A DNA stretch of 19,084 nt from a virus. Taxonomy: Duplodnaviria > Heunggongvirae > Uroviricota > Caudoviricetes. The notes below the pieces were generated by a model, which was not told where the DNA came from, made no database searches, and was given only the letters and a program-made list of their open reading frames with translations. How positions within the stretch are numbered: position 1 is the first letter of the stretch; every line of letters begins with the position of its first letter. Location: IMG/VR virus record IMGVR_UViG_2744054976_000008; one strand, 5' to 3'. The translations under genes were made by a program, and so were the position numbers. Below are positions 2,946 through 19,084 of this stretch, piece after piece.

Positions 2946-3391
2946 AATGAAACCAGTATATAAAGCGATGAACAACTAATTAATTAATATCTCGGGGCTA
3001 AAGAAATATATTCATGATTAATTGTATTAACAGGTGGTTAGTAGACTTGTCTTTTCCTCCAAAATTACATTTTAAAAACATTTTACTTGTAATTTTTTTT
3101 TGCAACAAATCGGTATAAATTTCACACAATGCTCGAAAAAAATGATAATTACACAGTGTTATAATAAGCATTGTTACCATGTTGTTGATGAAAGACACCT
3201 TAGTTTCATGGCTTATTATTTTAATTTGTATTATTGTGTATGTATGAAAGAAAACACAAGCGCGGATGGGACAAAACTGAGACACAAAAGGCCTCACAAT
3301 GGCTTGCAAGGCTTTACATGTTTTGATGTGGTGGGACGTGTGAGCGCAGTGTTGATGGGGTAATGCTTTGAATTAGAAGCGGATTCTTATA

Positions 3392-3437
3392 ATTCGTAAT
3401 GCGAAGGTCGTAGGTTCGACTCCTATTATCGGCACCA
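3392..3437 (+). tRNA. Partial tRNA-Thr(CGU) gene, 3' 46 nt only (pseudo-tRNA / att remnant, ptwF-like)
   Basis: ATTCGTAATGCGAAGGTCGTAGGTTCGACTCCTATTATCGGCACCA matches the anticodon loop (CGT) through the 3' CCA of E. coli tRNA-Thr (thrW) as recalled from memory. No D-arm or acceptor 5' half is present upstream. Confidence 0.7.
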
Positions 3438-3438
3438 T
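3420..3438 (+). repeat. attL core: 19-bp direct repeat CTCCTATTATCGGCACCAT
   Basis: Identical 19-mer recurs at 16108..16126. This copy is the 3' end of the tRNA-Thr fragment and sits immediately upstream of the integrase gene. Confidence 0.75.
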
Positions 3439-3601
3439 CACCTAGTTTTCCCAAGTCAACCCACATCAACAAAATCATTTAAAAACATATATATTACGTT
3501 GTTTTCATACGTTTGAGGTCAACCCTTGTCTCTTGAAATCAACACGCGGTTGGGGGCACAATCAGGGGCATGTTCTGTTCGGTCTAGGAAATGTGCCCCC
3601 A

Positions 3602-4792: not shown

Positions 4793-5613
4793 ATATTTTA
4801 AAAATTAATAATACTGATTCTCTGCTCAGAGATTACTACCAGTTGGATGAAGCTTCAGAAAAAATTGGTTGTAGTGAAAAGGATATACTCTGGTTTGCCA
4901 GAGAACGAGATGTAGAGCTATGCATGGAATTCCATGATGATGAGTATGATGTTTCATGTGGTTTGAAGATTGATGGTCAAATGGATGAGTTCTTATCTAA
5001 TCTGAAATATTTACCACGAGATAGAAATGGCAATATTATGTTGTCAGACTTAAGTTCTATAAGAATCCCTGATGAAGATAATTTAATTGATAAAAATGGT
5101 TTTATTCGATGTTTCATATCCGGTTTATGGGCTGTTGATTATGAATATAAAGATCTGTTAGTTAAGCATGAGGGGCAACCGGATTCCTGGCCTATTCATT
5201 TTCTACTGGCGGGTACGCCTAATATAAATTGTAAGGTAATTCTTTATGTAAATTATGATGAAAAAGAAAATTATTATCTTTTTGAGGTTTTGTGGATTAC
5301 AAAGGTACAGATTCAAAAATTCATTGATATAGTCTTATGCGAACAAAAGCGGATAAAAAACGCCAATAAATATAAATCACAATCTGAGGCGCAAAAACAA
5401 AAACATGCTGTTCCTCGAGCTGAAATACTCATGGCTATTATTTCGCTCTATCATCGTGATATGAGGCTAAGAAGAGAGAGTCCAGCAGCGATAGCTGATT
5501 ATCTTTTTCAACATGCCAGTGAGTTCTGGCCTAAGACCGGAGAACCGCCTTTGAGCTATGATACTGTTGTTAGTTTGCTACGTAGTTGCATGAAAAACAT
5601 TAAGTTTAACTAA
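4789..5613 (+). CDS. Hypothetical protein (274 aa), AT-rich, translationally coupled to int; possible N-terminal HTH
   Basis: Its ATG overlaps the int stop (ATGA at 4789-4792). The ORF is long, uninterrupted and AT-rich, with no motif I can assign; the N-terminal segment LDEASEKIGCSEKDILWFARE is HTH-like by eye. Confidence 0.6.
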   Translation: MNILKINNTDSLLRDYYQLDEASEKIGCSEKDILWFARERDVELCMEFHDDEYDVSCGLKIDGQMDEFLSNLKYLPRDRNGNIMLSDLSSIRIPDEDNLIDKNGFIRCFISGLWAVDYEYKDLLVKHEGQPDSWPIHFLLAGTPNINCKVILYVNYDEKENYYLFEVLWITKVQIQKFIDIVLCEQKRIKNANKYKSQSEAQKQKHAVPRAEILMAIISLYHRDMRLRRESPAAIADYLFQHASEFWPKTGEPPLSYDTVVSLLRSCMKNIKFN

Positions 5614-5738
5614 ATATTAACAATTATTGTGGCTAATGATTTTGGATTTTTTTCATTAGTCACATTTTTCTCATTTATAACCTATGTTTTAATTTTCCGT
5701 GTTGAAGCCAATAGACTTAGATAAACGGAGAATGATGA

Positions 5739-6029
5739 ATGTTATCTAAACATGATAATACTACTTTGCAACGACCTTCAATGGATTCTCTGATCGATAT
5801 GAAGTTTATTACTTCCGATTGTTTATTAAGTGATAAATGGATTTATCGATTGATTTCTCTGAATCGCTTTCCAAAACCTATAAAAATAGGTCGGATGTCA
5901 CGATGGCGCGCTGCTGATTATTATAAGTGGCGAGATGGGTTTGAAGAAAACTCAGGTCAACATTTTGAGGGAATGAGAAATAAGGCAAGAGCAATTAATA
6001 AAGGGAATAGATTATCACCTACTCCCTAA
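5739..6029 (+). CDS. alpA: AlpA-family phage transcriptional regulator / excisionase-like DNA-binding protein
   Basis: GGAG lies 9 nt upstream of ATG 5739. Core MKFITSDCLLSDKWIYRLISLNRFPKPIKIGRMSRWRAADYYKW resembles AlpA/Xis-type winged-helix proteins (FPKPxKxG...W...W). Confidence 0.7.
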   Translation: MLSKHDNTTLQRPSMDSLIDMKFITSDCLLSDKWIYRLISLNRFPKPIKIGRMSRWRAADYYKWRDGFEENSGQHFEGMRNKARAINKGNRLSPTP

Positions 6030-6061
6030 GCCTTAATTGATAGTTAGTAATATTTAACTGA

Positions 6062-6235
6062 TTAGCCTTTAGGGTCAATCCCGCGTGATTGGAGTTCTTT
6101 GCGTAAAATTCTTTTAATCCAAGTTGCCAACGCGCTATCTCCATCTTTGCGCATTTCGTTTTCGAGTTGCAACCTAAAATCGTCGGTAAGACGCATTTGG
6201 AATGGTGGAGAACGTTTCTCTTGTGGTGTTGACAT
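6062..6235 (-). CDS. Arc/Mnt-like ribbon-helix-helix repressor (58 aa); absent from the ORF track (below its size cutoff)
   Basis: Manual minus-strand translation from ATG 6235..6233 to TAA 6064..6062 gives MSTPQEKRSPPFQMRLTDDFRLQLENEMRKDGDSALATWIKRILRKELQSRGIDPKR. The PPFQMRLTDDFRLQLENEMRKDGDS segment parallels the P22 Arc N-terminal beta-strand and helix A (PQFNLRWPREVLDLVRKVAEENGRS, from memory). Confidence 0.55.
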   Translation of the reverse strand: MSTPQEKRSPPFQMRLTDDFRLQLENEMRKDGDSALATWIKRILRKELQSRGIDPKG

Positions 6236-6275
6236 GGTAATTACCCTAGAATATGATGACTACATGGTAATTACC
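6233..6275. promoter_or_regulatory. Twin operator-like palindromes: two copies of ACATGGTAATTACC, each with a perfect 10-bp palindrome GGTAATTACC, 30 bp apart
   Basis: Direct repeats at 6233-6245 and 6263-6275; GGTAATTACC is self-complementary. The first copy overlaps the start codon of the minus-strand RHH gene. The region is the divergent control region between the RHH gene and the rightward early operon. Confidence 0.55.
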
Positions 6276-6303
6276 ATTGTAAGTATAGTTCGCTTGTAAA
6301 AGC

Positions 6304-6338
6304 AATGCCCGATTGTGCGGGAACACAAATCGGGCATT
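6304..6338. promoter_or_regulatory. Perfect 11-bp inverted repeat AATGCCCGATT / AATCGGGCATT with a 13-nt loop (regulatory hairpin or weak leftward terminator)
   Basis: Seen directly. On the minus strand it is followed by GCTTTTAC; on the plus strand there is no U-tract. It lies at the transition from the AT-rich to the GC-rich part of the element. Confidence 0.35.
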
Positions 6339-6366
6339 TAACCAACCGTTATAAGAGGTAACGAAG

Positions 6367-6543
6367 ATGGCTAAACAGAAGTGTACCTGGTTATTTGCGG
6401 CGATCAACCGCAGTCAACGCAATGCCCGTCCTGTGATGTTAAGGATCACCGCAGATAACGAGCGGTCAGCGCGGCGCAGACTTGCCCCGGACTATGTACT
6501 GAGCTTTGCCGGGCGCATTCCCTGCGGAGGTGAACATGCGTAA
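6367..6543 (+). CDS. Small protein (58 aa), possibly Icd-like host cell-division inhibitor of P4-type elements
   Basis: AAGAGG lies 8 nt upstream of ATG 6367. Translation: MAKQKCTWLFAAINRSQRNARPVMLRITADNERSARRRLAPDYVLSFAGRIPCGGEHA. Its stop overlaps the next gene's start (ATGCGTAA). Not in the ORF track (under 60 aa). The family assignment rests on recollection only. Confidence 0.4.
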   Translation: MAKQKCTWLFAAINRSQRNARPVMLRITADNERSARRRLAPDYVLSFAGRIPCGGEHA

Positions 6544-6895
6544 TTATCCGCACCCCGGCGAACGCTGGCAGCATGAACGTGGCTGGACGGTCACGATTAT
6601 CCGATTAATAGAAGCCTCGCCCTCTGTGGCGCTGGTTAATCCTGAATTCAGCTGTGAAGTGCTGATACGTCATGACAGCGACAACCAGCTTTCTTCCTGC
6701 CCTCTGGCATGGTTTGAACAGCGGTATACGCGCCTGTTTGATGTACCGCTCTTTAAGCCTGCACCAGCTCCTGCAGGCGGTAGTGGTTCCGGCCCGCTGA
6801 CACTGCATCCGTCTGTGCTATTTATCCGCTGGCGGGAGCGTAGCATATGGCGTTCTGCTGAGCCTGACGACGGTCACTATTCAAAGTTTCTCTGA
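6536..6895 (+). CDS. Hypothetical protein of the P4-like early operon (119 aa)
   Basis: Track ORF 6506..6895; the likely start is ATG 6536 with GGAGG 7 nt upstream. Collinear and overlapping with its neighbours. Confidence 0.55.
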   Translation: MRNYPHPGERWQHERGWTVTIIRLIEASPSVALVNPEFSCEVLIRHDSDNQLSSCPLAWFEQRYTRLFDVPLFKPAPAPAGGSGSGPLTLHPSVLFIRWRERSIWRSAEPDDGHYSKFL

Positions 6896-6926
6896 CAAAA
6901 TACCGCTGAAAACGGAGTAATCCACG

Positions 6927-7211
6927 ATGAATATTTCAAACGGGCACAACGGTGCTCAGGGCCACACTTTGCCTGAAAAACACAATACCGGTGCTTTTGC
7001 CTATGGGTTGTCAGAGGACAGTTTCGGAAAGCTGACCCGCGCAAGAAATGCCTGCGACATGCTCCAGCTTCTCTTTTCTGAATACCCGTCTCAGGCCGGA
7101 GCACTGGACGCTGGCTGTGCGCATGGTGTCGCCGCGCTGATGGAGTACCTGCGGGCAGATTTGACGGATATTGCACACAGTTGCGCACTGATTGAAGGAG
7201 GTGCCAGATGA
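6927..7211 (+). CDS. Hypothetical protein of the P4-like early operon (94 aa)
   Basis: Track ORF; GGAG upstream; its stop overlaps the next start (ATGA at 7208-7211). Confidence 0.55.
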   Translation: MNISNGHNGAQGHTLPEKHNTGAFAYGLSEDSFGKLTRARNACDMLQLLFSEYPSQAGALDAGCAHGVAALMEYLRADLTDIAHSCALIEGGAR

Positions 7212-7591
7212 ACCAGCCGCAGGTTTCCATTTTCCCGGCAGAAATGACCACCGCGCTTTACCGGCGAGCTATTGCTTCAGCATGGCGGCAGAAAATGCTG
7301 AACGAAACTGGCAGTGATCAGTATGGTCCGCACAGCCTGACGGTGGAGCGTATTGAAATGGCCATTGCGCTGCATATCGAGTGCGTACTGATTAACGAGT
7401 ACGGCGAAGTGCAGGGCGCCGCTGCCGCGCTGGCACTGCTGACTGACATGCTGGAGCCGTCACTGCTAACCGCACCGCCGGTACTGACCGCGCGCGGCTG
7501 TGAAGTGATGGCGGAGATGTACCGCACGCTTCCGGCGGCCTTTGATGACTTCTGCAGTACCGGTGTGACGTTGTATGAGGGGGAAGTATGA
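7208..7591 (+). CDS. Hypothetical protein of the P4-like early operon (127 aa)
   Basis: Track ORF; GAAGGAGG upstream; ATGA overlap with the primase gene start at 7588. Confidence 0.55.
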   Translation: MNQPQVSIFPAEMTTALYRRAIASAWRQKMLNETGSDQYGPHSLTVERIEMAIALHIECVLINEYGEVQGAAAALALLTDMLEPSLLTAPPVLTARGCEVMAEMYRTLPAAFDDFCSTGVTLYEGEV

Positions 7592-10260
7592 CAATACAGA
7601 CGGTTACGCAGATTTCAGCCGCCGCACGGGGGAAATGGCCCGTTATTCTGCAGATGCTGCGTATTGATGTACCTGAAAACGGCAGGCACGGTCCCTGCCC
7701 GAAATGTGGGGGCAAGGATCGTTTTCGCCTTGATGACCTTGACGGGCGCGGGACGTGGATCTGCAGCCAGTGTGGCAATGGTGATGGTCTGGATCTGGTT
7801 AAGCTCGTAACCGGTTACAGCGTCAGAAAGGCTGCGCAGGAGGTGGCGCAGGTGCTTAATGTGCCGGATGTGCAGGAACTGCCTGTTAAGCCTGCCAGAC
7901 AAAAAGCCCCTAAACGCGACATGGGTCTTACCGTGGCGGCGCTGATGAAAGAGAGCCACACGGGAGAAAGCGCCTATCTGACAGAAAAAGGGTTCGCCGG
8001 ATACCCGGCCTCTCTGACCGGAAGCGTGCAGCATATCAGCGGTAAGGATTTCCCTGCCGGTTCCCTGCTGTTACCACTCACGACCAACACCGGAGCCGTG
8101 ACCGGTGCACAGCTTATCGCCCCGACGGGTGAAAAAAGCATACTGCCCGGCAGCACGATGAAAGGCGCGTTTGTGTCGCTCAGCCCGTTACCGTCTGAAC
8201 CACCGGTACAGGTGGTGATTACCGAAGGTTACGCTACGGCGCTGACGGTAAGCCAGCTCACTGCCGGATGCGTAGTGGCTGCCATATCTGCGGGCAACCT
8301 GCCCAATGTGGCGCAGTCGCTGCGGGCACGCTGGCCTGAGGTAAAAATTATCATCGCCGGTGATAACGATTTTCAGGACGGGGGTGAGAATCCCGGCAGA
8401 GCCTTTGCTGAACGGGCGGCAAAAGCTGTTGGCGGTTGGATGACGCTGCCACCAGGAGAGATTAAGGCTGACTGGAATGACTTTCATCGGGAGCACGGTA
8501 TTACCCGTGCCCGTGAAGCCTTTCGCAACGGTCTGGTACTGTGCGGGGAAGGCCGCACGCAACTGCCGCACGGGTTCCGTCTTACCCAGGAATATCTCTG
8601 GTATGAAAAGCAGGTACAGCGCAACGGTGAGACGGAGATCCAGAACGTCAAAATATGCAGCCCGCTGCGCGTGACGGCAATCACCTGCGATGCCGATGGC
8701 GGTAACTTCGGACGACTGCTGGAATGGGAAGATACGTGGGGTGAGCGTCGCCGCTGGGCGATGCCGATGGAAATGCTGAGCGGCAGTGGTGAGGAACTGC
8801 GCCGGGTACTGCTGGTTAACGGGCTGTCTTATATCAGCACCACCGGCGAGGCACGCGCACGCCTGATGGAATATATCTCACTGTGTAAACCGGAACGCCG
8901 CGTGACCTGCGTCAGCCGTACTGGCTGGCATGGTCAGGTTTACGTCCTGCAGGATGAGGTCAGCGGTGAAGGTGCAGAGGGTGTCATTCTCCAGACCACT
9001 TCCGTGCAGGGGCGTGATTTCCGCGTGTCGGGCACAACAGAGGAATGGCGGGAGAACGTATCCCGCTACTGTGCCGGCAACTCCCGCGTGGCATTTGCTG
9101 TCAGCCTGGCCTTTGCTGCACCACTGTTACGGCTGGTTGGTATGGACGGCGGCGGCTACCACCTCAAAGGGGAATCGACAGACGGTAAGACCACCACCAT
9201 GAAAGCGGCAACCTCCGTCTGCGGCGGGCCTGACTACTGGCAGACATGGCGGGCCACCGGCAACGCGCTGGAGGGATGCGCCAGCCGCCGCAACGATGCC
9301 GCCATGATGCTTGATGAGATCCGGGAAGTTGACGGACGCGAGGCAGGCAATATCGCCTACATGCTGGCAAACGGTCAGGGCAAGGGCCGTGCCGGTACGG
9401 ACGGTGAGCTGCGTACCCGTAAGCAGTGGCGCCTGTTGTTCTTTTCAACTGGCGAGTTGTCTCTGACCGAACATGCGGCAAAGGCCGGTGAGCGTACTTT
9501 TGCCGGGATGGAAGTCAGGATGATCCAGATCCCCAGCGATTCCGGGAAATTTGGCGTTTTTGAGGAACTGCACGGCTTCGACAGCGGCAAGGCTCTGGCA
9601 GAGCATCTTGAATGGGCCACGTCCTGCTACTACGGTTCGCCGTTCCGGGAGTGGCTGAAAGTACTGACCGCTGATCTTAATGGACTAACGGCACAGGCAA
9701 AATCGCTGATGAAGGAATATGCTGCCGCCCTGACTCCGAAAGATGCAGGCAATCAGGTGGGCCGGGCTGTGAATCGCTTTGCACTGGTGGCGATGGCGGG
9801 TGAACTGGCAACCCGTCTGGGTATCACCGGCTGGCCTGAGGGTGAAGCACTGCGGGCAACCCGCGTCTGCCTGAACGCATGGCTGAAAGATCGCGGGCAC
9901 ACCGCCAATCAGGAAGATATTGCCGCACTGGAGCAGGTTCGCAGTTTCTTTACCGCGAATCAGTACAGCCGCTTTGCAGACTGGTATGACGAGCGCAACC
10001 GCCCCGGCAATATGGTGGGCTGGCGCAGGGTGGAGAAAGGCAGTACCGCGCAGGGCACGGAAGCTGTCACTACGTTCTATGTCATGCCGTCCGGCTGGAA
10101 AGAAATCTGCAGGGGATTTGACCCGCGCAAGGTGGCGCGTCTGTGCGCAGATCGTGGATACCTGCTCCCCTCCACTGATGGCAAACTCCAGACAACCATT
10201 CGCCCGCCAGAGATGAATCCCCGCAGGCTCTATGTCTTCAACAGCAAGGTGCCGGGTTAA
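7588..10260 (+). CDS. P4 alpha-like bifunctional DNA primase-helicase (zinc ribbon + Toprim + P-loop NTPase)
   Basis: 890 aa. N-terminal Cys4 zinc ribbon CPKCGGKDRFRLDD...WICSQCG; Toprim signatures VVITEGYATA and IIIAGDNDFQDGG; Walker A GESTDGKTT in the C-terminal half. Confidence 0.85.
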   Translation: MTIQTVTQISAAARGKWPVILQMLRIDVPENGRHGPCPKCGGKDRFRLDDLDGRGTWICSQCGNGDGLDLVKLVTGYSVRKAAQEVAQVLNVPDVQELPVKPARQKAPKRDMGLTVAALMKESHTGESAYLTEKGFAGYPASLTGSVQHISGKDFPAGSLLLPLTTNTGAVTGAQLIAPTGEKSILPGSTMKGAFVSLSPLPSEPPVQVVITEGYATALTVSQLTAGCVVAAISAGNLPNVAQSLRARWPEVKIIIAGDNDFQDGGENPGRAFAERAAKAVGGWMTLPPGEIKADWNDFHREHGITRAREAFRNGLVLCGEGRTQLPHGFRLTQEYLWYEKQVQRNGETEIQNVKICSPLRVTAITCDADGGNFGRLLEWEDTWGERRRWAMPMEMLSGSGEELRRVLLVNGLSYISTTGEARARLMEYISLCKPERRVTCVSRTGWHGQVYVLQDEVSGEGAEGVILQTTSVQGRDFRVSGTTEEWRENVSRYCAGNSRVAFAVSLAFAAPLLRLVGMDGGGYHLKGESTDGKTTTMKAATSVCGGPDYWQTWRATGNALEGCASRRNDAAMMLDEIREVDGREAGNIAYMLANGQGKGRAGTDGELRTRKQWRLLFFSTGELSLTEHAAKAGERTFAGMEVRMIQIPSDSGKFGVFEELHGFDSGKALAEHLEWATSCYYGSPFREWLKVLTADLNGLTAQAKSLMKEYAAALTPKDAGNQVGRAVNRFALVAMAGELATRLGITGWPEGEALRATRVCLNAWLKDRGHTANQEDIAALEQVRSFFTANQYSRFADWYDERNRPGNMVGWRRVEKGSTAQGTEAVTTFYVMPSGWKEICRGFDPRKVARLCADRGYLLPSTDGKLQTTIRPPEMNPRRLYVFNSKVPG

Positions 10261-10293
10261 GGCTTTGCGTGAGTCTTATTTATTAAGGGTAAC

Positions 10294-10482
10294 AGGTGAA
10301 ACAGGTGGAACAACCGTATTTTACAGGGCTGAACCTGTTCCACCTTCTGAAATAGTGAGGTGGAACAGATGTAACGCCAGCCAATCCGCTGTTCCACCTT
10401 GTTACCCGCGATGTTCCACCGGTGCAGTGCATATAAATGCTTTACAAAACAAAGCAGTAACACATGTTTCACCTGTTCCACC
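10294..10482. repeat. Iteron array: eight copies of the 9-mer TGTT(C/T)CACC in both orientations; putative P4-type ori/crr
   Basis: Copies start at 10294 and 10304 (reverse orientation), 10336, 10359 (reverse), 10390, 10412, 10465 and 10474. They sit in the non-coding gap between the primase gene and the Psu-like gene. P4 ori/crr is built from a repeated TGTTCACC-type octamer bound by alpha (from memory). Confidence 0.6.
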
Positions 10483-10660
10483 GCATAAGGGACATACAGC
10501 AGACTGAAACAGAGGGCATTTTTATCTGGCTGGCTTTCATAGCCACGTCTGAATAACCGCAATCGCGCGTTGTGCCAGCCACCATACACTGAGCACCGAT
10601 AGTGTGCTTGTGTCAGCCACGACACAATTTACGTAACGAATCAACCCGACAGGAGAAGTC

Positions 10661-11422
10661 ATGAACAACACCGCAGTGAATAACAATCTTTCCTCTTTTC
10701 CGGCTGTAACGCAGCGGGCACTGGAAACCATGAACACAGCCAGAAACGCATGGCTTGAAGCACGTCGTCAGCAGAAAGCGGCAGCGGATAATATTGCGAC
10801 AATCCGCCAGCGCCGCGCTGAAATGGAAGCCACGACTAACGCGCTGAATGAGGAGTGGCGCACGCTGTTTCGTGAAAGTCAGGGCGTAGTCTCAAAGGAA
10901 ATGAAAAAACTGCGTACGGAAATTGCGCTGGGGCGTGAAACGCTTGAGGATTTTGATGAGCTGCTGACTGCTCAGGAAAGCGAAAATGCATTATTACCGC
11001 AGGAAGCCGGGAAATTAGCCGGGCAGTATATCAGCGCACATAACACCCTTGTGGAAATTCGCGCAAAGCAAATCTGGGAAGACTTCATGCAGTCGCATGG
11101 AAAAGCGCTTATTCAGACGCTGAGCCTGCTTAAATCAACAATGGGCCGGGAAGCCAGTGCTGTTGTGGGTGTGGTGAATTCAGTTAATGACCCGGACACA
11201 GTGCTGAAAGACTTTATTCATAAACATATCACCAGACCGGCTCTGGCTAACGATGCGATGCCTGAACAGGACCCGGTGTTTAAACTGGCGGGAGTTGCCC
11301 CGGATTATGCAGCTCTTGCTGATTTCCGCAAAATTCCTTCTCCGGCAGCCCTTCATAAAATGAAGATCCGGCAGGAACGTGAGGAACTACAAAAACGTAA
11401 CCGAGCTGCGGAGGGTATCTGA
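10661..11422 (+). CDS. P4 Psu-like (polarity suppression) or Sid-like coiled-coil protein
   Basis: 253 aa, strongly helical and charged; AGGAG upstream. The segment SAHNTLVEIRAKQIWEDFMQSHGKAL resembles my recollection of P4 Psu; the gene lies immediately upstream of an Ogr/Delta gene as in the P4 late operon. Psu versus Sid cannot be resolved without an alignment. Confidence 0.5.
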   Translation: MNNTAVNNNLSSFPAVTQRALETMNTARNAWLEARRQQKAAADNIATIRQRRAEMEATTNALNEEWRTLFRESQGVVSKEMKKLRTEIALGRETLEDFDELLTAQESENALLPQEAGKLAGQYISAHNTLVEIRAKQIWEDFMQSHGKALIQTLSLLKSTMGREASAVVGVVNSVNDPDTVLKDFIHKHITRPALANDAMPEQDPVFKLAGVAPDYAALADFRKIPSPAALHKMKIRQEREELQKRNRAAEGI

Positions 11423-11694
11423 TGGCATTGAAATGTCCTTTCTGTTCAGCCATTGCACATTGTCGAGCCAGTGTGTACGAAGCCCCCTCTGTAAAGAAAA
11501 CGTACTACCAGTGCCAGAATCTGGAATGTTCAAGCACTTTTACGGCGCTTGAATCAGTGCATACCATTATCACCCGCCCGCAGAAAGAAGAGAATACGCA
11601 GACAGTAGAGGAGGCTACAGACAAAAAAGGGCAGACACTGAATCGCTATGGCTCTGCATCCAAGCTTTCCAGCCGCCAACAAATCCCTGTCTGA
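11422..11694 (+). CDS. Ogr/Delta-family zinc-finger late transcription activator
   Basis: MALKCPFCSAIAHCRASVYEAPSVKKTYYQCQNLECSSTF has the C-x2-C...C-x4-C spacing and YxCxN motif of P2 Ogr / P4 Delta. Start overlaps the upstream stop (TGATG). Confidence 0.8.
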   Translation: MALKCPFCSAIAHCRASVYEAPSVKKTYYQCQNLECSSTFTALESVHTIITRPQKEENTQTVEEATDKKGQTLNRYGSASKLSSRQQIPV

Positions 11695-11709
11695 TTCTCC
11701 CCTACATAC

Positions 11710-11733
11710 TCCCGGTCCTGAGCCGGGATTTTT
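11710..11733 (+). terminator. Rho-independent terminator after the Ogr/Delta gene
   Basis: TCCCGG-TCCTGAG-CCGGGA stem-loop followed by TTTTT, 16 nt after the stop codon. Confidence 0.7.
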
Positions 11734-12312
11734 ACGCCTTTTCTTGGCTGGCTTGAGGACGTATGAGTGCATGTCTATGGCGCATGAAAACGCATGAGTT
11801 CCATGCACCAATTTTGACGCGAAAGCCCTTGTGTTGCGGTTCCTGAGACGATTTACGGGGTGCATGAAAACCATTCTGTTAAGCGAAATGGGTAGGCGGG
11901 CGGGGCTGCGCACGTGGTAGGGCTAAATGGTCAATTCTGGTGCAATTCGCGAAACTCAGTCAGTTTCAATAGATGTAAGTGTTGCTGGGGGAGATTCGCT
12001 ACTTTTTGGTATCCTAAATCGTATGGTTCGATGTTGATCATCTTTTCTTCGCACCTGCAGAGATATCAATTAAATGTGAACAAATAAGAGTCTGGATCTT
12101 CCCATATCGCTAAAACCGCCAGTATTGTTAGGGATGATGCCCATATTATGCGGTGGGGACCAGCGAGCCGCCAACTTGTCAGCGTGGCCTACACAATTTC
12201 ATGCAGGTGACTGAAACTATTACATTAAGTGGTCAAGTGTAGCGAGGATGCGATTGCGCGCAACGATGTAAAGAGTTATAAAAGCATAAAGGATAGTACT
12301 GTGAGGGGGGTT

Positions 12313-13590
12313 ATGAACCGGCAGCCATTTACTTCATCAGCACTTAAGCGTAACTTGAGTGAAAGTGAGAAGAGTTTTTATTTTAATAAAAACAATGTGG
12401 ATAAATTAGAATCATTAATCAGTGATGCTGTTTTAATTGCCAGCGAAAATTTTCGTTCTGGAGTAACTGTAAAGAAAATAAATATCAAAGGACGTTGTGT
12501 TTACAACGCATCTTGTTTAAAAGAAAAACTAATACTTAGACATTGTAATGCAAACTTAAAATGTTTGGAGTCACTTCTACCCAAACAAAGAAATAAAATA
12601 ATTGATGAGCTTAAAATTTATCTCAAAGAAGGTGCACAATTCCGAGTGTATCGCTTAGATATAAAATCTTTTTTTGAATCTATCGATTTGCCTCAGCTCT
12701 TTCAATATTTGCAAGATGAACGGCGTTTATCCAGACATACTAAAAATTTGATAGAATGGTATCTTAAAGCTTGTGAAAGAATCCATTCATCAAAAGGTTT
12801 GCCAAGAGGACTGGAGATTAGTCCTATGTTATCTGAGCTATATTTGGCAGCATTTGATAGTAGTATTCATCGGCATTCAGAAGTGTTTTATTACTCTCGC
12901 TTTGTAGATGATATGGTGATCATTTCAAGTGGAAATGAATGCCCATCGACTTTAATGAAACAAATACAAAGTTTGTTACCCAAGGGATTAAGTTTAAATA
13001 CAAATAAGTTGAAGGTGTCCCCACTTATCGACAAAAGAAGCAAAGGCACGGCAGGTAAAGATAAATTACTCCATAAATTTGATTTTTTAGGTTACTCTTT
13101 TTCTGTAATAGATTCTCCTCTAAGTAACAAAGGTGCTACTTTAAGTGTATATAGAAAAGTAACTGTAGATTTATCTCGTGGACGCATAAAAAAAATTAAA
13201 ACTAGAATAGCAAAAGCTTTCTACTCCTACCATAGAACTGGTGATTTTAAATTGTTATTAGATAGAATTTCTTTTTTAACAAGCAATAGAGATTTAAATA
13301 GGAAGATTAGATCATTAAGTTCATTAGAGAAAGGTAAGGTTAGTACTGGAATTTATTATAGTAATGCAAGATTGGATGTAAATTCTATATCCTTAAAGCA
13401 ATTAGATGATTTTTTATTATATTGTGTTAAATCGAACAACGGACGTTTGCATAGTATTGCGAAACATTCCTTCACTGTAAACCAAAGAAAGGAGTTATTG
13501 CGCAATAGTTTTAGAAAAGGTTTTGTTGATAGAGTTTATAGGAAGTACAATTTCAAACGTTACACTGAGATCACAAAAATATGGCTATAA
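12313..13590 (+). CDS. Reverse transcriptase 1 (about 425 aa; defence-associated RT, candidate DRT3a/UG3-like)
   Basis: Track ORF 12229..13590 starts at a GTG; the likely start is ATG 12313 with GAGGGGGG upstream. RT motifs: RLDIKSFFESID (motif 1/2-like), GLPRGLEISPMLSELYLAAFD (motif B-like), YYSRFVDDMVIIS (catalytic F-x-D-D, motif C), LHKFDFLGYSF. Strongly AT-rich codon usage unlike the flanking backbone. Confidence 0.8.
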   Translation: MNRQPFTSSALKRNLSESEKSFYFNKNNVDKLESLISDAVLIASENFRSGVTVKKINIKGRCVYNASCLKEKLILRHCNANLKCLESLLPKQRNKIIDELKIYLKEGAQFRVYRLDIKSFFESIDLPQLFQYLQDERRLSRHTKNLIEWYLKACERIHSSKGLPRGLEISPMLSELYLAAFDSSIHRHSEVFYYSRFVDDMVIISSGNECPSTLMKQIQSLLPKGLSLNTNKLKVSPLIDKRSKGTAGKDKLLHKFDFLGYSFSVIDSPLSNKGATLSVYRKVTVDLSRGRIKKIKTRIAKAFYSYHRTGDFKLLLDRISFLTSNRDLNRKIRSLSSLEKGKVSTGIYYSNARLDVNSISLKQLDDFLLYCVKSNNGRLHSIAKHSFTVNQRKELLRNSFRKGFVDRVYRKYNFKRYTEITKIWL

Positions 13591-15599
13591 AGAAAAATGT
13601 AAAACTTGATAAGAAGGATTACCTCAGGGCTTTACTATGTGATACGCAACCAGGTGACTGTCCCATCATCTTTTCAAATGATGGATTGTATTTGAACCTG
13701 ACCGAGTTTGAAAATCATTATAAGGAGATTTTGTATTTCTCTCCCCTTTCTTCATTCGTAAAGAAAATTATTAATCCTGCTTTTGATTTGTCTATAAAAA
13801 TAGAAGAACGAGAAAAAGACAAGAAGAAACAAAGCTTTCCGTTTGGCTATTGCATTGTCAAGGATGCTTTTAGTTTAAGATATCTTTCTTTAATTCATCC
13901 CAGATCGCAACTTAATTATTGTGAGTTTTATAAAAATTACTCAACTGTTATAACATTAAATGCGTCAAAAAGTAATTACTCTATAAGATATCCTCGAAAG
14001 GTCGCAAACTCATTCTTCTTATATGAAAATAATGCCTCAGAGAAATATAAAGGAGAGGATATTGAAACAACAAATGATGAATTAATGAGGAAGTATTCAT
14101 CATCTTATTTTTCTTATGGCGGATTTAATAGGATATATAAGTTATTTCAAAGTAAAATGTTTTTTGATCTTGAGAAAAGATTCTCAATAATGTGGATGTT
14201 AGATGTATCACATTGTTTTGATAGTATATATACTCATTCTATTTCATGGGCTTTAAAAAATAAACCTTACATCAGAAAACATGTGAAATATAGCAATCAA
14301 TTTGGTCAGGAACTAGATACGTTGATGCAACGTAGTAATAATAATGAAACAAATGGTATACCTATAGGCTCAGAATTTAGTCGGGTCTTTGCTGAGTTAA
14401 TATTCCAGCGTATCGATTGTAGTATTGAATCAAATCTTTTTGATGAATACGGGTGGGTTAATCACGAGGACTATGTGATATTAAGGTATGTGGATGATTT
14501 TATAGTGTTTTGCAACAATGAAGCAAATGCTGAACTTATCACTAAAACCATTAACGTGAAGCTAAATGATTTTAATCTTCAGTTAAATATCAATAAACTT
14601 AAAAAATATTCTAGACCATTCTGCACTAGCAAGACAGGATTGATCATTAAAGTTAACGAACTAGTGCGGAATCTTGAAGGTAAATTATATAAAAGGATTG
14701 ATGGTGACATTTTTCTAAATAAGATTAGAAGCAAGCATGATTTAAAAGTGAATATGATAAATAATATCAAGTCTATATGTGTTGATAACAAGGTTTCTTA
14801 CACGGATATTTCCTCGTATCTGATATCTTCATTATCAAAAAGATTAATATTAATTATTGATTTCTTTCCGGTGGAAAAGATTAAAGGTGATGTTGAAATA
14901 CGTAAGAATATTAAAGATATTATATTTTTAGTAACTGATATAATGTTGTTTTTCTTCAGTGTTAACCCAACTGTGTCATCTTCATATAAATTATCAAAAA
15001 CAATGGTTATCGTTAATGATTATTTGAAAATGCTTTCAAGTGATTATAGCAGTATTTTTATGACAACATTAATAGATACTGCTGAAAATATCAATTTTGG
15101 TGAAAATGACAATGGTCTTTTTATTGATGGGTTTATTTCCATAGAGAAAGTTAATTTGATATTAGCTGCTACTTTTTTTGGGGATAATTATCTTGTAAGC
15201 ACTTCTTTCTTTAATGGTATTATACATAAAAAGAAATTGGATTACTTTACAATAATCTCATTATTATTCTATTTTAGAAATAGAAAACCTTATCAAGAAC
15301 TTAAACATATTGTTGAGGTTAGAATTAAAGATTTGCTATATCCTGATATGGATTTATTACAATCATCGGAAAAGGCACATTTATTCTTGGATGTTATGTC
15401 TTGCCCATTTGTTTCAATTGAGACAAGACGATTTTTGTACAGAAAATATCTCAAAAAATATGAGAAAAATGTGAATAGAAGCCATTTGGAAATTGAGAGC
15501 GATCTGCAATCTATGCTCAAAACTTATTGGTTTGTCAAGTGGGATGAGTTAGATCTTGTAAAGATGATTGAGAAAAAAGAATTGAAAGAAAGTTATTAA
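13581..15599 (+). CDS. Reverse transcriptase 2 (672 aa, with a long C-terminal extension; candidate DRT3b/UG8-like)
   Basis: ATG 13581 overlaps the RT1 stop by 10 nt. RT motifs: MLDVSHCFDSIYTHSISW (motif A-like), GIPIGSEFSRVFAELIF (motif B-like), ILRYVDDFIVF (YVDD catalytic motif), LQLNINKLKK. About 300 aa follow the fingers/palm region. AT-rich. Confidence 0.8.
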   Translation: MAIKKNVKLDKKDYLRALLCDTQPGDCPIIFSNDGLYLNLTEFENHYKEILYFSPLSSFVKKIINPAFDLSIKIEEREKDKKKQSFPFGYCIVKDAFSLRYLSLIHPRSQLNYCEFYKNYSTVITLNASKSNYSIRYPRKVANSFFLYENNASEKYKGEDIETTNDELMRKYSSSYFSYGGFNRIYKLFQSKMFFDLEKRFSIMWMLDVSHCFDSIYTHSISWALKNKPYIRKHVKYSNQFGQELDTLMQRSNNNETNGIPIGSEFSRVFAELIFQRIDCSIESNLFDEYGWVNHEDYVILRYVDDFIVFCNNEANAELITKTINVKLNDFNLQLNINKLKKYSRPFCTSKTGLIIKVNELVRNLEGKLYKRIDGDIFLNKIRSKHDLKVNMINNIKSICVDNKVSYTDISSYLISSLSKRLILIIDFFPVEKIKGDVEIRKNIKDIIFLVTDIMLFFFSVNPTVSSSYKLSKTMVIVNDYLKMLSSDYSSIFMTTLIDTAENINFGENDNGLFIDGFISIEKVNLILAATFFGDNYLVSTSFFNGIIHKKKLDYFTIISLLFYFRNRKPYQELKHIVEVRIKDLLYPDMDLLQSSEKAHLFLDVMSCPFVSIETRRFLYRKYLKKYEKNVNRSHLEIESDLQSMLKTYWFVKWDELDLVKMIEKKELKESY

Positions 15600-15870
15600 T
15601 CTGATAGAAATATAACTGTGGTCAGTTTCAAAATACTTACGTTATTATTGTTGATGTGTTTTTGCGTTGGCAGTAATACGATTTCGCTGGATCTGAAATC
15701 GGCTTAATTGCTTAAACTTAAGTTAATAAATTTGCTTAAGATCCGATCCTGTTAAGCAGGAGAAGGAGCTTTCAGGTTCAGTTGAGAGTAGTTGCTAGCT
15801 GTTTATAGCTTAACCAGAACAGCTTGTGGTGCTTACACACCTGATGTTGAGAAACTGGCCACACCTACGC

Positions 15871-16006
15871 CCATGCTTCCCATGCTTCCNNNNNNNNNNN
15901 NNNNNNNNNNNNNNNNNNNNNNNNNNNNNNNNNNNNNNNNNNNNNNNNNNNNNNNNNNNNNNNNNNNNNNNNNNNNNNNNNNNNNNNCCATGCTTCCCAT
16001 GCTTCC
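15871..16006. repeat. 9-bp tandem repeat (CCATGCTTC) interrupted by an unresolved 98-nt run of N (15890..15987)
   Basis: Two full units plus one base are visible on each side (15871-15889 and 15988-16006). The right-hand units are exactly in phase with the left (117 nt = 13 x 9), so the gap is consistent with 11 hidden units, about 15 in total. N bases are not biological sequence. Confidence 0.6.
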
Positions 16007-16107
16007 AGAGCTGTAAATGGAACTAAATTGTGGGGCATGTATGGGGGCATATCATTTTAAATAAATTATTATTTTCTTGTTTTTCAGTTTGTTATGTGCA
16101 TGTTTTG

Positions 16108-16126
16108 CTCCTATTATCGGCACCAT
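16108..16126 (+). repeat. attR core: 19-bp direct repeat CTCCTATTATCGGCACCAT
   Basis: Identical to 3420..3438. Here only the terminal 18 nt plus one base of the tRNA-like sequence are present; upstream sequence does not match the tRNA. Confidence 0.75.
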
Positions 16127-16251
16127 TAAAATCAAAGAGTTACCCCATATTTAAATACACCACGTTTCCTCCTGTGCCGTATTTGTGCCATTGTAACCTT
16201 GGCAATTCATCAAAATACTGTTCTGACATCAGGCAGTGCAGGTGCAGACAT

Positions 16252-16662
16252 TTAAGCCAATTGCTGCCGCCATTCTTTGACGTAGTCAATCAGGGCGCGG
16301 AGCTTTGGTGCAATATTGCGACGCTGTGGGAAATACAGATAGAAGCCCGGAAATTGTGGAAGAAAGTCATCAAGCAGCGATACAAGCTTACCGCTTTCAA
16401 TATATGGCCTGAAAGTTTCCTGAGTGGCAATTGTTATTCCTCCGCCGGCAAGAGCCAGCCTCAACATCAGACGCAGATCATTAGTCGTAATCTGCGGTTC
16501 AATCGCAAGGTCGAAAGTTCTCCCGTTTTCTTCAAATGGCCAGCGATAAGGCGCAACCTCCGGGGACTGACGCCAGCCGATACACTTATGGGTATTTCCC
16601 CCGGAGGCGAGAAAGCGCTCTCCACGCCCGGCCGCAAGGATCAGGACGACGGGGGCAGGCAT
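16252..16662 (-). CDS. yagP: LysR-family transcriptional regulator C-terminal fragment (YagP-like, ~136 aa)
   Basis: Track ORF 16252..16794; the LysR-like part is the C-terminal effector-binding-domain sequence ...DLRLMLRLALAGGGITIATQETFRPYIESGKLVSLLDDFLPQFPGFYLYFPQRRNIAPKLRALIDYVKEWRQQ, with no N-terminal HTH. The proposed start is ATG 16662..16660, which overlaps the paoD 3' end. Position next to paoD matches the E. coli yagP locus as recalled. Confidence 0.55.
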   Translation of the reverse strand: MPAPVVLILAAGRGERFLASGGNTHKCIGWRQSPEVAPYRWPFEENGRTFDLAIEPQITTNDLRLMLRLALAGGGITIATQETFRPYIESGKLVSLLDDFLPQFPGFYLYFPQRRNIAPKLRALIDYVKEWRQQLA

Positions 16663-17597
16663 GAATCCTCCTCCTGATGGAGACGTACAGAGGCGACTTC
16701 TGCCAGCACGGAGAGTGCCAGAGTATGCGCATCCCGGGCTTTGGGGAATATCCCGACGGGTGCCCGGATTTGCGTTGTTTCCTCCCTGGACCATCCCAGC
16801 TCGTGGAGCTTTTGCAGACGTAACGTGTGGGTTCGATAGCTGCCCAATGCGCCGAGATAAAAGGGTTTTGCTTCTCGCGCGGCCTGCAACACTGGCAGCT
16901 CCCGGTTGAGATCATGGCACAGCAAAATGACCGCCGTATCGGTATCGATCTGAGCGCTGGCTGAGGCCGGAAAAAGATCGAAGATATGGCTGTCATAGCC
17001 TGTGGCTGCTGCAAGACTCGCGGTTGCCTGCGCCTCAAGAGAACGTCCGTAAATCATCAGCCTGACGCATGGCCTGAACCCCACCTCAAAGCCATTGAGA
17101 TTCCAGCCCGTCCGGGTTTGCGTGGGCAGGCACACCAGCGATTGTGCTTGCGGATCGTAGCGCAGCCCCACCGGTTTTCTCTGTTCCAGGCGGTTCAGCA
17201 CGGCGAGCAGAGGCTGTGCCGAGCGTAGTTTATGGAGCGTCAGCGTGATCCCACCGCCGCAGGGCAGAACGATGTCAAACCACGGCGAACCTTCGCCATA
17301 GCGAATTTCGCGATCGCGGCCTGAGCCCATCATCTCCAGCGCTTCAAAAGCGGCAGCGGCCTCCACGCAGCCGCCAGAGACAAAACCGCAGTAACGACCA
17401 TCTTCGCGCACCACCATCTGCGCCCCGAGCGGGCGCGCCGCGCCGCCGCGTATCTCCACCAGCGTCACCAGCACCGCTCCTTTACCGGACATTAGCGCCT
17501 CTACGGCGAAGCGCAGAATGGTCCGGTGGTCATCGGTGAGAAACGCCTGCTCTGGCTTATGCCAGTGTTCGTCTTTGTCAAAAAGCGGGTATGACAT
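16641..17597 (-). CDS. paoD: XdhC-family molybdenum cofactor insertion chaperone PaoD (YagQ)
   Basis: 318-aa ORF from ATG 17597 with GGAGG upstream. Sequence MSYPLFDKDEHWHKPEQAF...GFVSGGCVE... is XdhC/CoxI-like and lies immediately downstream of a molybdopterin oxidoreductase gene, as in paoABCD. Confidence 0.85.
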   Translation of the reverse strand: MSYPLFDKDEHWHKPEQAFLTDDHRTILRFAVEALMSGKGAVLVTLVEIRGGAARPLGAQMVVREDGRYCGFVSGGCVEAAAAFEALEMMGSGRDREIRYGEGSPWFDIVLPCGGGITLTLHKLRSAQPLLAVLNRLEQRKPVGLRYDPQAQSLVCLPTQTRTGWNLNGFEVGFRPCVRLMIYGRSLEAQATASLAAATGYDSHIFDLFPASASAQIDTDTAVILLCHDLNRELPVLQAAREAKPFYLGALGSYRTHTLRLQKLHELGWSREETTQIRAPVGIFPKARDAHTLALSVLAEVASVRLHQEEDSCLPPSS

Positions 17598-17606
17598 TGT
17601 TCCTCC

Positions 17607-19084
17607 TTAAACCACATCCGGCAGCTTATCGAGCAGCTTATCCAGAGTGATGGGATAATCCCGTACCCGAATACCGGTGGCGTTATACACCGCGTTGGCG
17701 ATAGCCGCGCTCACGCCGCACAGGCCCAGCTCACCGACACCTTTGGCCTTCATCGGGGAGGATATGGGGTCGGTATCATCCAGGAAAATCACCTCCTGTT
17801 TTGGGATATCCGCATGAACCGGCACCTCATACCCCGCCATATCGTGATTAACGAAGTAGCCCAAACGGTCATCCACCGCCAGCTCCTCCATCAGTGCCGC
17901 GCCCATGCCCATAGTCATTGCGCCAATGACCTGGCTGCGCGCAGTTTTCGGATTCAGGATGCGTCCTGCAGCACACACAGCGAGCATACGCCGGACCCGA
18001 ACTTCTCCCGTCGCGCTATGCACGCCGACCTCCACAAAATGCCCGGCAAAGGTCGACTGCTGGTACTCTTTGCTCAGTGTTCCGAATTCAATGCTCTCTT
18101 CCGCTGTCAGTCTGCCGCCTGCGGTGGCTTCATGTAGCGTGGCGCTTCGGGTACCGTTGGTAATCTTGCCGTCGGCAAACTGCGACTGCTCAGGATCAAA
18201 CCCGACTGCCGAGGCAATCATTTCGCGAAGCTTCATACAGGCGGCGTAAACGCCGGAGGTGGAGGTATTCGCGCCCCATTGTCCACCAGAACCCGCAGAA
18301 ACCGGGAAACTGGAATCGCCGAGGTGAACCGCAACCTGCTCCAGCGGTACGCCAAGCATTTCCGCTGCCGTCTGGGCCAGAATGGTGTAGCTGCCGGTGC
18401 CAATGTCGGTCATGTCCGTTTCTACGGTAACGGTGCCGTTTTGTTCGAGGTGAACCCGAGCACCCGATTTTTCCAGCAGATTATTGCGAAAGCCCGCAGC
18501 AACACCGTGGCCGACTAGCCACTCCCCGTCGCGCACCTGTCCGGGTGTGGCGTTGCGCTGCTTCCAGCCAAATTTATCCGCTCCGGTGCGCAAGCACTCG
18601 ATAAGCTGACGGCGAGAGAAGCAGCGCGTCGGGTCGGCGGGGTCAACCTGAGTGTCATTCAGGATGCGAAACTCGACGGGATCGATGCCCGCTTTTTCCG
18701 CCAGTTCGTCGATCGCGATTTCGAGCGCCATCAGACCGGGGGCTTCGCCGGGCGCACGCATGGCGTTCCCTTCCGGCAAATCAAGCGTGGCGAGCCGCAG
18801 GCCGGTATGACGATTCGCCCCGGCGTAGAGTAATTCGCTTTGCTGTACCGCCGTTTCCGGCGTGCCGCCGGGCAGGTTTCCAGACCAGCTTTCATGTGAG
18901 ATAGCGGTGATTTTCCCGCTCTGGTCGGCACCGATACGCAAGTGCTGAAGGGTGGCGGGGCGGTGCGTGGTGTTATTGGGAATAGAGGGGCGGGGGGGGA
19001 TCACTTGAACCGGGCGCGTTTCACCGCTTGGGGGGCGAGGGGCGCCAGCAGCGCCTCGCTTTTCAAGAACAACTTTCGGCCAAA
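17607..19084 (-). CDS. paoC: Aldehyde oxidoreductase molybdenum-binding subunit PaoC (YagR), 5'-partial (N-terminus beyond the window end)
   Basis: The frame is open from the window edge to TAA at 17609..17607; the track begins at an internal GTG at 19004 but upstream codons continue without a stop. The sequence is typical of xanthine dehydrogenase-family molybdopterin-binding subunits (...GTGSYTILAQ..., ...GQWGANTSTSG..., ...KAKGVGELGLCGVSAAIANAV...). Confidence 0.85.
   Translation of the reverse strand, partial: WPKVVLEKRGAAGAPRPPSGETRPVQVIPPRPSIPNNTTHRPATLQHLRIGADQSGKITAISHESWSGNLPGGTPETAVQQSELLYAGANRHTGLRLATLDLPEGNAMRAPGEAPGLMALEIAIDELAEKAGIDPVEFRILNDTQVDPADPTRCFSRRQLIECLRTGADKFGWKQRNATPGQVRDGEWLVGHGVAAGFRNNLLEKSGARVHLEQNGTVTVETDMTDIGTGSYTILAQTAAEMLGVPLEQVAVHLGDSSFPVSAGSGGQWGANTSTSGVYAACMKLREMIASAVGFDPEQSQFADGKITNGTRSATLHEATAGGRLTAEESIEFGTLSKEYQQSTFAGHFVEVGVHSATGEVRVRRMLAVCAAGRILNPKTARSQVIGAMTMGMGAALMEELAVDDRLGYFVNHDMAGYEVPVHADIPKQEVIFLDDTDPISSPMKAKGVGELGLCGVSAAIANAVYNATGIRVRDYPITLDKLLDKLPDVV

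Follow-up and report, generated by a model that had tools for sequence, protein, structure and literature searches.

[quoted passage not shown] 2026, according to the summary of that work in PMC13314766. What makes DRT3 remarkable is that one strand of the repeat DNA is copied from RNA, while protein side chains specify the sequence of the other. For EcoDRT3 of Wang et al. 2026, with its DRT3b structure (PDB 26cz), the template role of an ACACAC motif has been demonstrated, the importance of EcoDRT3b residues R71, D182, F187 and R241, of the YVDD motif and of Y666 has been tested by mutation, and an E22D replacement retained partial activity and still made poly-(dCdA) (PMC13174585). PDB entries 9z6y and 9z6z represent a DRT3 complex solved by cryo-EM; this, too, is work of Deng et al. 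2026 that PMC13314766 summarises. P4-like satellites have been described to carry a defence hotspot abutting cos (Rousset et al. 2022, PMC9122126), and UG3+UG8 has already been named among the RTs of P4 hotspots (Mestre et al. 2022, PMC9226505).

We have analysed a 19,084-nt stretch of viral DNA, hereafter the window, in which an earlier sequence-only reading had proposed a module of this kind. We conclude, with a probability of roughly 0.92, that a P4-like satellite, inserted at an att site derived from tRNA-Thr, here carries an intact DRT3 system as AT-rich cargo of its cos-proximal hotspot.

The two reverse transcriptases

Both RT genes lie on the + strand, drt3a (UG3, a Class 2 RT of 425 aa) at 12313-13590 immediately upstream of drt3b (UG8, a Class 1 RT of 672 aa with an alpha-repeat domain and a C-terminal tail) at 13581-15599. 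The sequence-only reading had described these two ORFs, with motif C intact in each (FVDD in the first, YVDD in the second) and a 10-nt overlap, and on all these points it was accurate; the overlap, read directly from the sequence, is exactly 10 nt (ATGGCTATAA, 13581-13590, drt3a stop and drt3b start). Among homologous loci from other bacteria, a 10-nt overlap recurs in L003, L005, L086, L087 and L088, and the overlap in L089 is 4 nt; drt3a and drt3b are probably translationally coupled. We place the drt3a start at ATG 12313, which directly follows a Shine-Dalgarno sequence (GAGGGGGG) and is the equivalent of the RefSeq start in near-identical genomes; the mechanically called ORF begins at GTG 12229. 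The promoter scan gave no sigma-70 consensus promoter upstream of drt3a. A conserved TTGCGC-17-TATAAA at ~12255-12283, spotted by eye, is an unscored guess at a promoter. The RT pair had also been called AT-richer than the P4-like backbone, and G+C is indeed 0.27-0.32 over 12501-16000, as compared to 0.50-0.62 in the backbone at 6500-12000.

Profile HMM searches match both proteins to DRT3 models at a level far beyond chance. Drt3a aligns to the PADLOC Drt3a model over residues 1-424 of 425 (435 bits, E 8e-131) and scores 362 bits against the NCBIfam equivalog NF041747 (cut-off 200), whereas its PADLOC runner-up is RT_UG17. Drt3b aligns to the PADLOC Drt3b model over residues 4-672 (665 bits, E 3e-200) and scores 606 bits against NF041748 (cut-off 350), with Drt6, AbiP2, UG14, Drt4 and AbiK as PADLOC runners-up; Pfam RVT_1 is matched in Drt3a and Drt3b alike. 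The UG3/Drt3a and UG8/Drt3b assignments, previously made by motif reading, are confirmed by these scores. Models for retrons and group II introns remain far under their cut-offs, and neither protein is therefore placed in a non-defence RT clade. The next-best kin, the telomerase-like DRT10/UG17 and the protein-primed Class 1 AbiK/DRT4, fit the pairing of a Class 2 with a Class 1 RT, but they reach 100-140 bits, compared to 435 and 665 for the DRT3 models, and are single-RT systems.

Sequence matches to the solved Drt3a and Drt3b structures have E values of 1e-55 to 1e-111. The 9z6y system has the same components in the same order (Drt3a, Drt3b and ncRNA), and both of our proteins align with it over their full length, Drt3a to chain A and Drt3b to chain H, although identity is only 34% and 35%, respectively. 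Motif C, the Arg switch and the terminal Tyr align between the two systems; 9z6y differs in the length of Drt3b (650 aa, as compared to 672 here), in its gate residue (Glu, E26, where we find Asp) and in motif C of Drt3a (YVDD, where we find FVDD). The FVDD of the present Drt3a occupies aa 197-200 (nt 12901-12912), and its first position is F in 27 of 74 species and Y in the other 47. Drt3b also matches 26cz over its full length, yet EcoDRT3b is farther from it than 9z6y is (257 versus 377 bits), and the N-terminal 80 residues align via a profile only.

We placed the key residues of Drt3b by profile alignment and tallied their conservation over 76 species. The counterparts of the mutationally tested EcoDRT3b residues are R100 for R71 (nt 13878-13880), D208 and F213 for D182 and F187, R268, the Arg switch, for R241 (nt 14382-14384), and the priming Tyr Y672, encoded by the last codon, for Y666 (nt 15594-15596); the YVDD of motif C, read from the translation, lies at aa 303-306 (nt 14487-14498). 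R100, D208, F213, R268, Y303, V304, D305 and Y672 are residues that are invariant across the 76 species, including the C-terminal Tyr position (76/76). The acidic (dATP) gate maps to D26 (nt 13656-13658), the equivalent of E22, and is thus Asp instead of Glu. Asp occupies this position in 24 of the 76 species, and we regard it, on the alignment, as a common natural variant and a conservative change. Judged by this mapping, the Drt3b residues of experimentally proven importance are all present, the gate in its Asp variant.

The downstream ncRNA and the adjoining array

The DRT3 ncRNA, only alluded to in the sequence-only reading, is present 3' of drt3b as a structured RNA of ~250 nt (15617-15863, + strand). 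The DRT3 ncRNA is absent from Rfam 15, and Rfam searches of the whole window at the gathering threshold and of 11650-16150 at E up to 1 found no family; we therefore built our own covariance model, R1, from 15 other, distant species only, with the window's own sequence left out. R1 has a single match in the window, at 15597-15869 (+ strand; 38.9 bits, E 5e-7), the next best having an E value of 0.25, and the fold z-score of the region is -6.0. At default filters R1 missed the ncRNA of the Yersinia locus L088, which is obvious by eye, so the sensitivity of the model is imperfect.

In the constrained fold, the RNA is closed by helix P1 (15617-15629 with 15851-15863), inside which lies P2 (15632-15635 with 15845-15848). 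Both helices covary, and across species 90% of cells in P1 are paired, as compared to 31-48% in slid controls. The helices enclose a predicted stem-loop (15640-15680), a predicted branched domain (15684-15785) and a further predicted stem-loop (15786-15834) that abuts the template. The template for poly-(dTdG), ACACAC at 15835-15840, is read from its position and takes its putative role from EcoDRT3, which has the same motif in its downstream ncRNA; it is followed by the conserved CCTGATGTTGAG. ACACAC is found 105-311 nt 3' of the Drt3b stop, in a conserved context, in 77 of the 78 Drt3b loci with sequence. Here it lies 236 nt past the drt3b stop, as compared to about 120-220 nt elsewhere, and the ncRNA is ~85 nt longer than the consensus model and longer than most; the added length falls in variable stem-loops, outside the template region. 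The terminator scan gave no intrinsic terminator 3' of the ncRNA.

The additional ~85 nt, together with D26 in place of E22 and the ~35% identity to the solved proteins, could be taken to mean that this is a DRT3-family module functionally apart from the characterised ones, with a different repeat product or a different trigger. We consider this improbable, as the template is exactly ACACAC with conserved flanking sequence, the extra RNA leaves the template region unaffected, and R268, R100 and Y672 are invariant; moreover, an Asp gate is common in nature and the corresponding E22D enzyme still makes poly-(dCdA) (PMC13174585).

A partial copy of the 5' strand of the ncRNA at 11959-11980 (17/22 match, repeat D9) was treated as chance, R1 having no significant match there. 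This 17/22 match sits just 3' of the cos-like block, in sequence that is missing from other satellites.

The only oddity of the locus is a variable 9-nt array after the ncRNA. This tandem array, (CCCATGCTT)n, has ~15 copies at 15870-16006, within which fall 98 N (15890-15987); L001 has 18 copies and L002 eight, the latter being five perfect copies and three more, two of these CCCGTGCTT variants. We rejected the array as a component of DRT3: neither the 79%-identical DRT3 loci of E. coli nor 80 loci from other species contain it. The same repeat occurs on 35 unrelated metagenome contigs with no Drt3a or Drt3b nearby, and has no matches in viral contigs. It adjoins the DRT3 system but probably does not belong to it.

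The satellite, its hotspot and close relatives

The P4-like satellite spans 12.7 kb (3420-16126, + strand), as recognised from its att repeats, from Pfam and PHROG matches and from the RefSeq annotation of near-identical loci. The 19-nt att direct repeats (CTCCTATTATCGGCACCAT, D10 in the direct-repeat search) lie at 3420-3438 and 16108-16126, and between them stand, in P4 order, an integrase ORF (3533-4792; Pfam Phage_integrase), an alpha-like primase (7588-10260; Zn_Ribbon_Prim, Toprim and DUF927), a Psu-like gene (10661-11422; Psu, phrog_6165, E 7e-93) and Ogr/Delta (11422-11694; Ogr_Delta), followed by a terminator found by the terminator scan (11710-11728). The tRNA scan found no tRNA gene, and attL holds only a 3' fragment of tRNA-Thr-like sequence; the satellite is integrated at a tRNA-Thr-derived att site.

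A G-rich block (GGCGGGCGGGGCTGCGCAC, 11890-11913, + strand), nearly invariant in four satellites, marks the left edge of the hotspot and is a likely candidate for the cos region. When satellites carrying the same or other cargo are compared, their backbones cease to be similar near 11920 and become similar again at GGGGCATGTATGGGGGCAT (16033), and by this comparison the variable cargo occupies 11925-16032 (+ strand) and consists of ~390 nt of non-coding sequence, then drt3a and drt3b, followed by the ncRNA and the array of tandem repeats. Another satellite has DprA and a phosphoribosyltransferase between the same flanks. The sequence-only reading had already claimed both a P4-like context and a position in the hotspot, and both claims hold. 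As in the hotspot of Rousset et al. (PMC9122126), the cargo lies past psu and Ogr/Delta, starts right after the cos-like block and extends to the integrase-arm/att end, and we see no substantial difference from that arrangement.

The 672-aa Drt3b is identical to protein cluster P0001, present on 217 contigs, and the DNA of the locus is matched with 99.6% identity in three E. coli chromosomes. In two of these, A287 and PRO_A-1462-6M-A_ESBL, Drt3a is 98.8-99.8% and Drt3b 99.9% identical; the third, MFDS1022581, is related by DNA match only. RefSeq already names an identical Drt3b and the 98.8-99.8% identical Drt3a as drt3b and drt3a (WP_053292704.1/WP_087604462.1 and WP_044789697.1), and the suggestion that the pair might be a divergent or new two-RT variant does not hold up. 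The A287 and PRO_A-1462-6M-A_ESBL loci share with the present one an identical ncRNA, the same P4-like satellite and the same paoD-side flank, and differ from it in the number of array copies (18 and 8, as compared to about 15 here) and, beyond the satellite, in the left-hand flank. The architecture and the 10-nt overlap are kept even in homologues whose proteins are 79-81% identical, which indicates purifying selection.

This conservation bears on whether the locus might be a decayed, non-functional relic of DRT3, a passive passenger of the satellite. The failure to detect a consensus promoter or terminator and the hypervariable array against the ncRNA 3' end would suit such a relic, but both frames are full-length with all catalytic and specificity residues intact, the ncRNA is unchanged in two other genomes where Drt3b is nearly so, and the more distant homologues keep the arrangement; we judge a relic very improbable. 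An origin of the RTs in a retron, group II intron or other non-defence retroelement, for which there are weak partial palm-region matches, is already refuted, as those matches (78 bits for the group II model, cut-off 300; 52 bits for retron St85, cut-off 235) cover the palm only, no group II intron or msr/msd RNA of Rfam turns up even when E values up to 1 are admitted, and the matches to the models of Drt3a and Drt3b run from one end to the other.

Proposed mechanism and meaning

Because the locus is homologous to two experimentally dissected DRT3 systems, the mechanism most likely follows theirs, and it is from this homology that we infer its repeat-DNA products, trigger and defence phenotype. 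Drt3a would bind the ncRNA encoded just 3' of drt3b and copy ACACAC over and over into poly-(dTdG), the abutting stem-loop setting the 5' limit of the template. Drt3b, primed by the hydroxyl of its C-terminal Y672, would add dC and dA alternately without a nucleic-acid template, by means of the acidic gate D26 and the Arg switch R268. In uninfected cells, host RecBCD would degrade the product; phage inhibitors of RecBCD (e.g. lambda Gam) would allow it to accumulate, leading to growth arrest and thus abortive infection.

Some observations count against reading the locus as an intact DRT3 system. Identity to the 9z6y pair is no more than 34-35%, and the score of Drt3b against 26cz is lower than that against 9z6y; the Asp gate gave only partial activity when put into EcoDRT3b (PMC13174585); and the ncRNA is longer than most, with neither a consensus promoter nor an intrinsic terminator detected. 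It is a long shot, but this lineage with its Asp gate and long ncRNA might differ in fidelity, activity or trigger, and (CCCATGCTT)n may tune the 3' end or abundance of the ncRNA. If so, array copy number would act as a phase-variable control on a DNA-synthesis system that is constitutively toxic.

The intact DRT3 system that we favour is already known as a module: its identification here is correct and ordinary, and brings nothing new. The locus is one more annotated natural copy of DRT3, and the discovery of the mechanism has already been published. Its value is modest: it offers a complete and clean specimen of a lineage that shares ~35% identity with the solved systems and has an Asp gate, set in a precisely bounded hotspot, and comparisons that test the gate residue or the size of the ncRNA could make use of it.

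A paired reverse transcriptase module

The two co-oriented reverse transcriptase (RT) genes described in the sequence-only reading are borne out on the plus strand: drt3a occupies 12313–13590 (425 aa counted from the ATG; the mechanical ORF opens at GTG 12229) and drt3b occupies 13581–15599 (672 aa), the drt3a stop and drt3b start overlapping by 10 nt (ATGGCTATAA). Directly 5′ of ATG 12313, which is the RefSeq start of drt3a in near-identical genomes, lies GAGGGGGG. Motif C is FVDD in Drt3a (aa 197–200) and YVDD in Drt3b (aa 303–306), and G+C content is 0.27–0.32 across 12501–16000, compared to 0.50–0.62 in the backbone at 6500–12000.

The same reading had proposed a DRT3 assignment, to be checked with profile HMMs, and this also holds, with UG3/UG8-type models matched in both PADLOC and NCBIfam, the latter above their cut-offs. 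For Drt3a, the match to the PADLOC Drt3a model runs from end to end (E 8e-131), and the NCBIfam equivalog NF041747 scores 362 bits, its cut-off being 200; for Drt3b, the PADLOC Drt3b model reaches E 3e-200 and NF041748 scores 606 bits, with its cut-off at 350. The runner-up PADLOC families (UG17 for Drt3a; Drt6, AbiP2, UG14, Drt4, and AbiK for Drt3b) fit the expected pairing of a Class 2 with a Class 1 RT. Pfam finds only the generic RVT_1 palm in both proteins. Group II intron and retron RT models score far under their cut-offs. The solved Drt3a/Drt3b complex 9z6y can be aligned with the whole of each protein (Drt3a, E 3.5e-55, 34% identity; Drt3b, E 2.2e-111, 35% identity), and Drt3b additionally matches 26cz, a SUMO-tagged 667-aa DRT3b.

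DRT3, the way it works, and its occurrence at this P4 site have all been published, and the copy in the window is already known. Its Drt3b is exactly the NCBI cluster “MULTISPECIES antiviral reverse transcriptase Drt3b” (217 contigs), and the locus has 99.6% DNA identity to three complete Escherichia coli chromosomes in which drt3a and drt3b are annotated. Two of these three E. coli loci (L001 and L002) share 99.9% identity with the window in Drt3b and 98.8–99.8% in Drt3a; the ncRNA is identical in both. This lineage occurs in ∼22 of 5426 complete E. coli genomes.

The P4-like satellite and its cargo hotspot

A perfect 19-nt direct repeat (CTCCTATTATCGGCACCAT) at 3420–3438 and 16108–16126 delimits the satellite as 3420–16126. 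Pfam and PHROGs identify a tyrosine integrase (ORF 3533–4792), an AlpA-like regulator, a DUF5375 protein, a Zn-ribbon/Toprim/DUF927 primase (7588–10260), a Psu-like protein (10661–11422; phrog_6165, E 7e-93), and an Ogr/Delta zinc-finger protein (11422–11694), downstream of which lies a terminator (11710–11728). An AT-rich 274-aa ORF (4789–5613, plus strand) starts within the integrase gene, with a 4-nt overlap at its stop. Pfam, PADLOC, and PHROGs offer no match for this ORF, which is labeled a hypothetical protein in RefSeq and may be the satellite's second accessory gene.

The left repeat copy is the end of a tRNA-Thr-like 3′ fragment (∼3395–3438) at attL, and the window contains no complete tRNA. 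To the left are a serine resolvase (89–613) and a 743-aa AIDA/pertactin-type autotransporter (744–2975, minus strand); the neighbor of the satellite is therefore another island, arranged in tandem, and not an intact tRNA. The right chromosomal flank (16127–19004) carries a truncated LysR-family pseudogene, then paoD (16641–17597, minus strand) and paoC, and corresponds to the E. coli K-12 CP4-6 prophage region at its right end.

The placement in a P4-family hotspot, also put forward from sequence alone, was confirmed by aligning the satellite with three others, one of which carries DprA and a phosphoribosyltransferase in place of DRT3. The common backbone stops just past a conserved G-rich block (11890–11913), likely cos, and restarts at GGGGCATGTATGGGGGCAT (16033); thus, the DRT3 module fills the cos-proximal cargo hotspot of P4-like satellites (Rousset et al. 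2022, PMC9122126), where UG3+UG8 were already among the RTs recorded (Mestre et al. 2022, PMC9226505). Upstream of drt3a, ∼235 nt of non-coding sequence (∼11990–12240) is missing from two 79%-identical E. coli DRT3 satellites (L003 and L005); its part up to 12161 has an 87% match to another E. coli satellite.

The downstream ncRNA and the adjoining tandem array

An ncRNA, mentioned in the sequence-only reading with no location, was found downstream of drt3b. From the drt3b stop to ∼15865, where conservation ends sharply, sequence is conserved among E. coli DRT3 loci with protein identities of only 79–81%. An ACACAC motif, read from the sequence at 15835–15840 (plus strand), recurs 105–311 nt past the drt3b stop in 77 of 78 species loci with downstream sequence, fetched with a Drt3b profile (chance expectation ∼0.1 per 400 nt), and the order stem-loop, ACACAC, CUGAUGYUGAG is recurrent across loci. 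For 15 distant species, RNAalifold gives a 13-bp closing helix and a 2-bp junction helix, with compensatory changes at 13 of these 15 pairs; paired cells are 90%, compared to 31–48% with slid partners, and the covariation score is 0.79, compared to at most 0.23, and is reached by none of 500 shuffles. A covariance model of the same 15 sequences, none from E. coli, searched with filters off, has a single match in the window (15597–15869, plus strand, 38.9 bits, E 5e-7; next E 0.25). Rfam 15 has no family for the DRT3 ncRNA.

The fold z-score is −6.0. With the template kept single-stranded, the predicted plus-strand fold comprises closing helix P1 (15617–15629/15851–15863) and P2 (15632–15635/15845–15848), on both of which closer relatives agree, a hairpin (15640–15680), a branched domain (15684–15785), and a long hairpin abutting the template (15786–15834); the internal helices are predictions only. 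The closer relatives also show the extra length of this ncRNA to sit in variable stem-loops. Within upstream sequence absent from the other satellites, shortly past the cos-like block, 11959–11980 resembles 15621–15642, the 5′ strand of the closing helix (17/22 matches); this likeness is probably due to chance, because the covariance model has no significant match there.

Starting 6 nt past the 3′ strand of the closing helix, a (CCCATGCTT)n array of 9-nt units spans 15870–16006. The 98 N of the window (15890–15987) fall within it and keep the repeat phase, implying ∼15 copies; near-identical genomes have 18 (L001) and 8 (L002). The array is in no other DRT3 locus compared, and 35 metagenome contigs with the repeat never have it beside Drt3 genes. 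We regard it as a hypervariable lineage-specific minisatellite; a regulatory effect on the ncRNA is conceivable but improbable. A 66-aa hypothetical protein annotated by RefSeq across the array (minus strand) in L001 is probably spurious.

Functional residues and proposed mechanism

In EcoDRT3b, structure and mutagenesis identified Y666 as the primer, with E22 as dATP gate, R241 as dCTP switch, and a base stacked on R71 (Wang et al. 2026, PMC13174585); its metal ligands are D182 and the YVDD motif (PMC13174585). Profile alignment to 26cz, the EcoDRT3b structure (chain offset 108), places these at window Y672 (the last residue), D26, R268, R100, D208, and 303–306, and F187 at F213. Across 76 Drt3b loci, for the most part a single one from each species, no variation is seen at R100, D208, F213, R268, Y303, V304, D305, or Y672. 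As gate residue, 52 of the 76 have Glu and 24 have Asp, and the first residue of Drt3a motif C is Phe in 27 and Tyr in 47 of 74; E22D is reported to retain partial poly-(dCdA) synthesis, with Asp frequent in nature (PMC13174585). The Drt3a FVDD and the Drt3b Asp gate are therefore not unusual.

Fifteen of the 76 homologs (among L045 and L057–L082, DRT3 loci of other species), mostly from Alphaproteobacteria, have YVDN rather than YVDD as Drt3b motif C, and 13 of these 15 carry one extra residue after the priming Tyr (Y-A or Y-H). With its second catalytic Asp altered, this sublineage may merit a look.

The window DRT3 most likely works as do the published systems (PMC13174585; Deng et al. 2026, as summarized in PMC13314766). 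[quoted passage not shown] RecBCD would hold this repeat DNA low until inhibited by a phage, for example through lambda Gam, upon which its build-up would lead to abortive infection.
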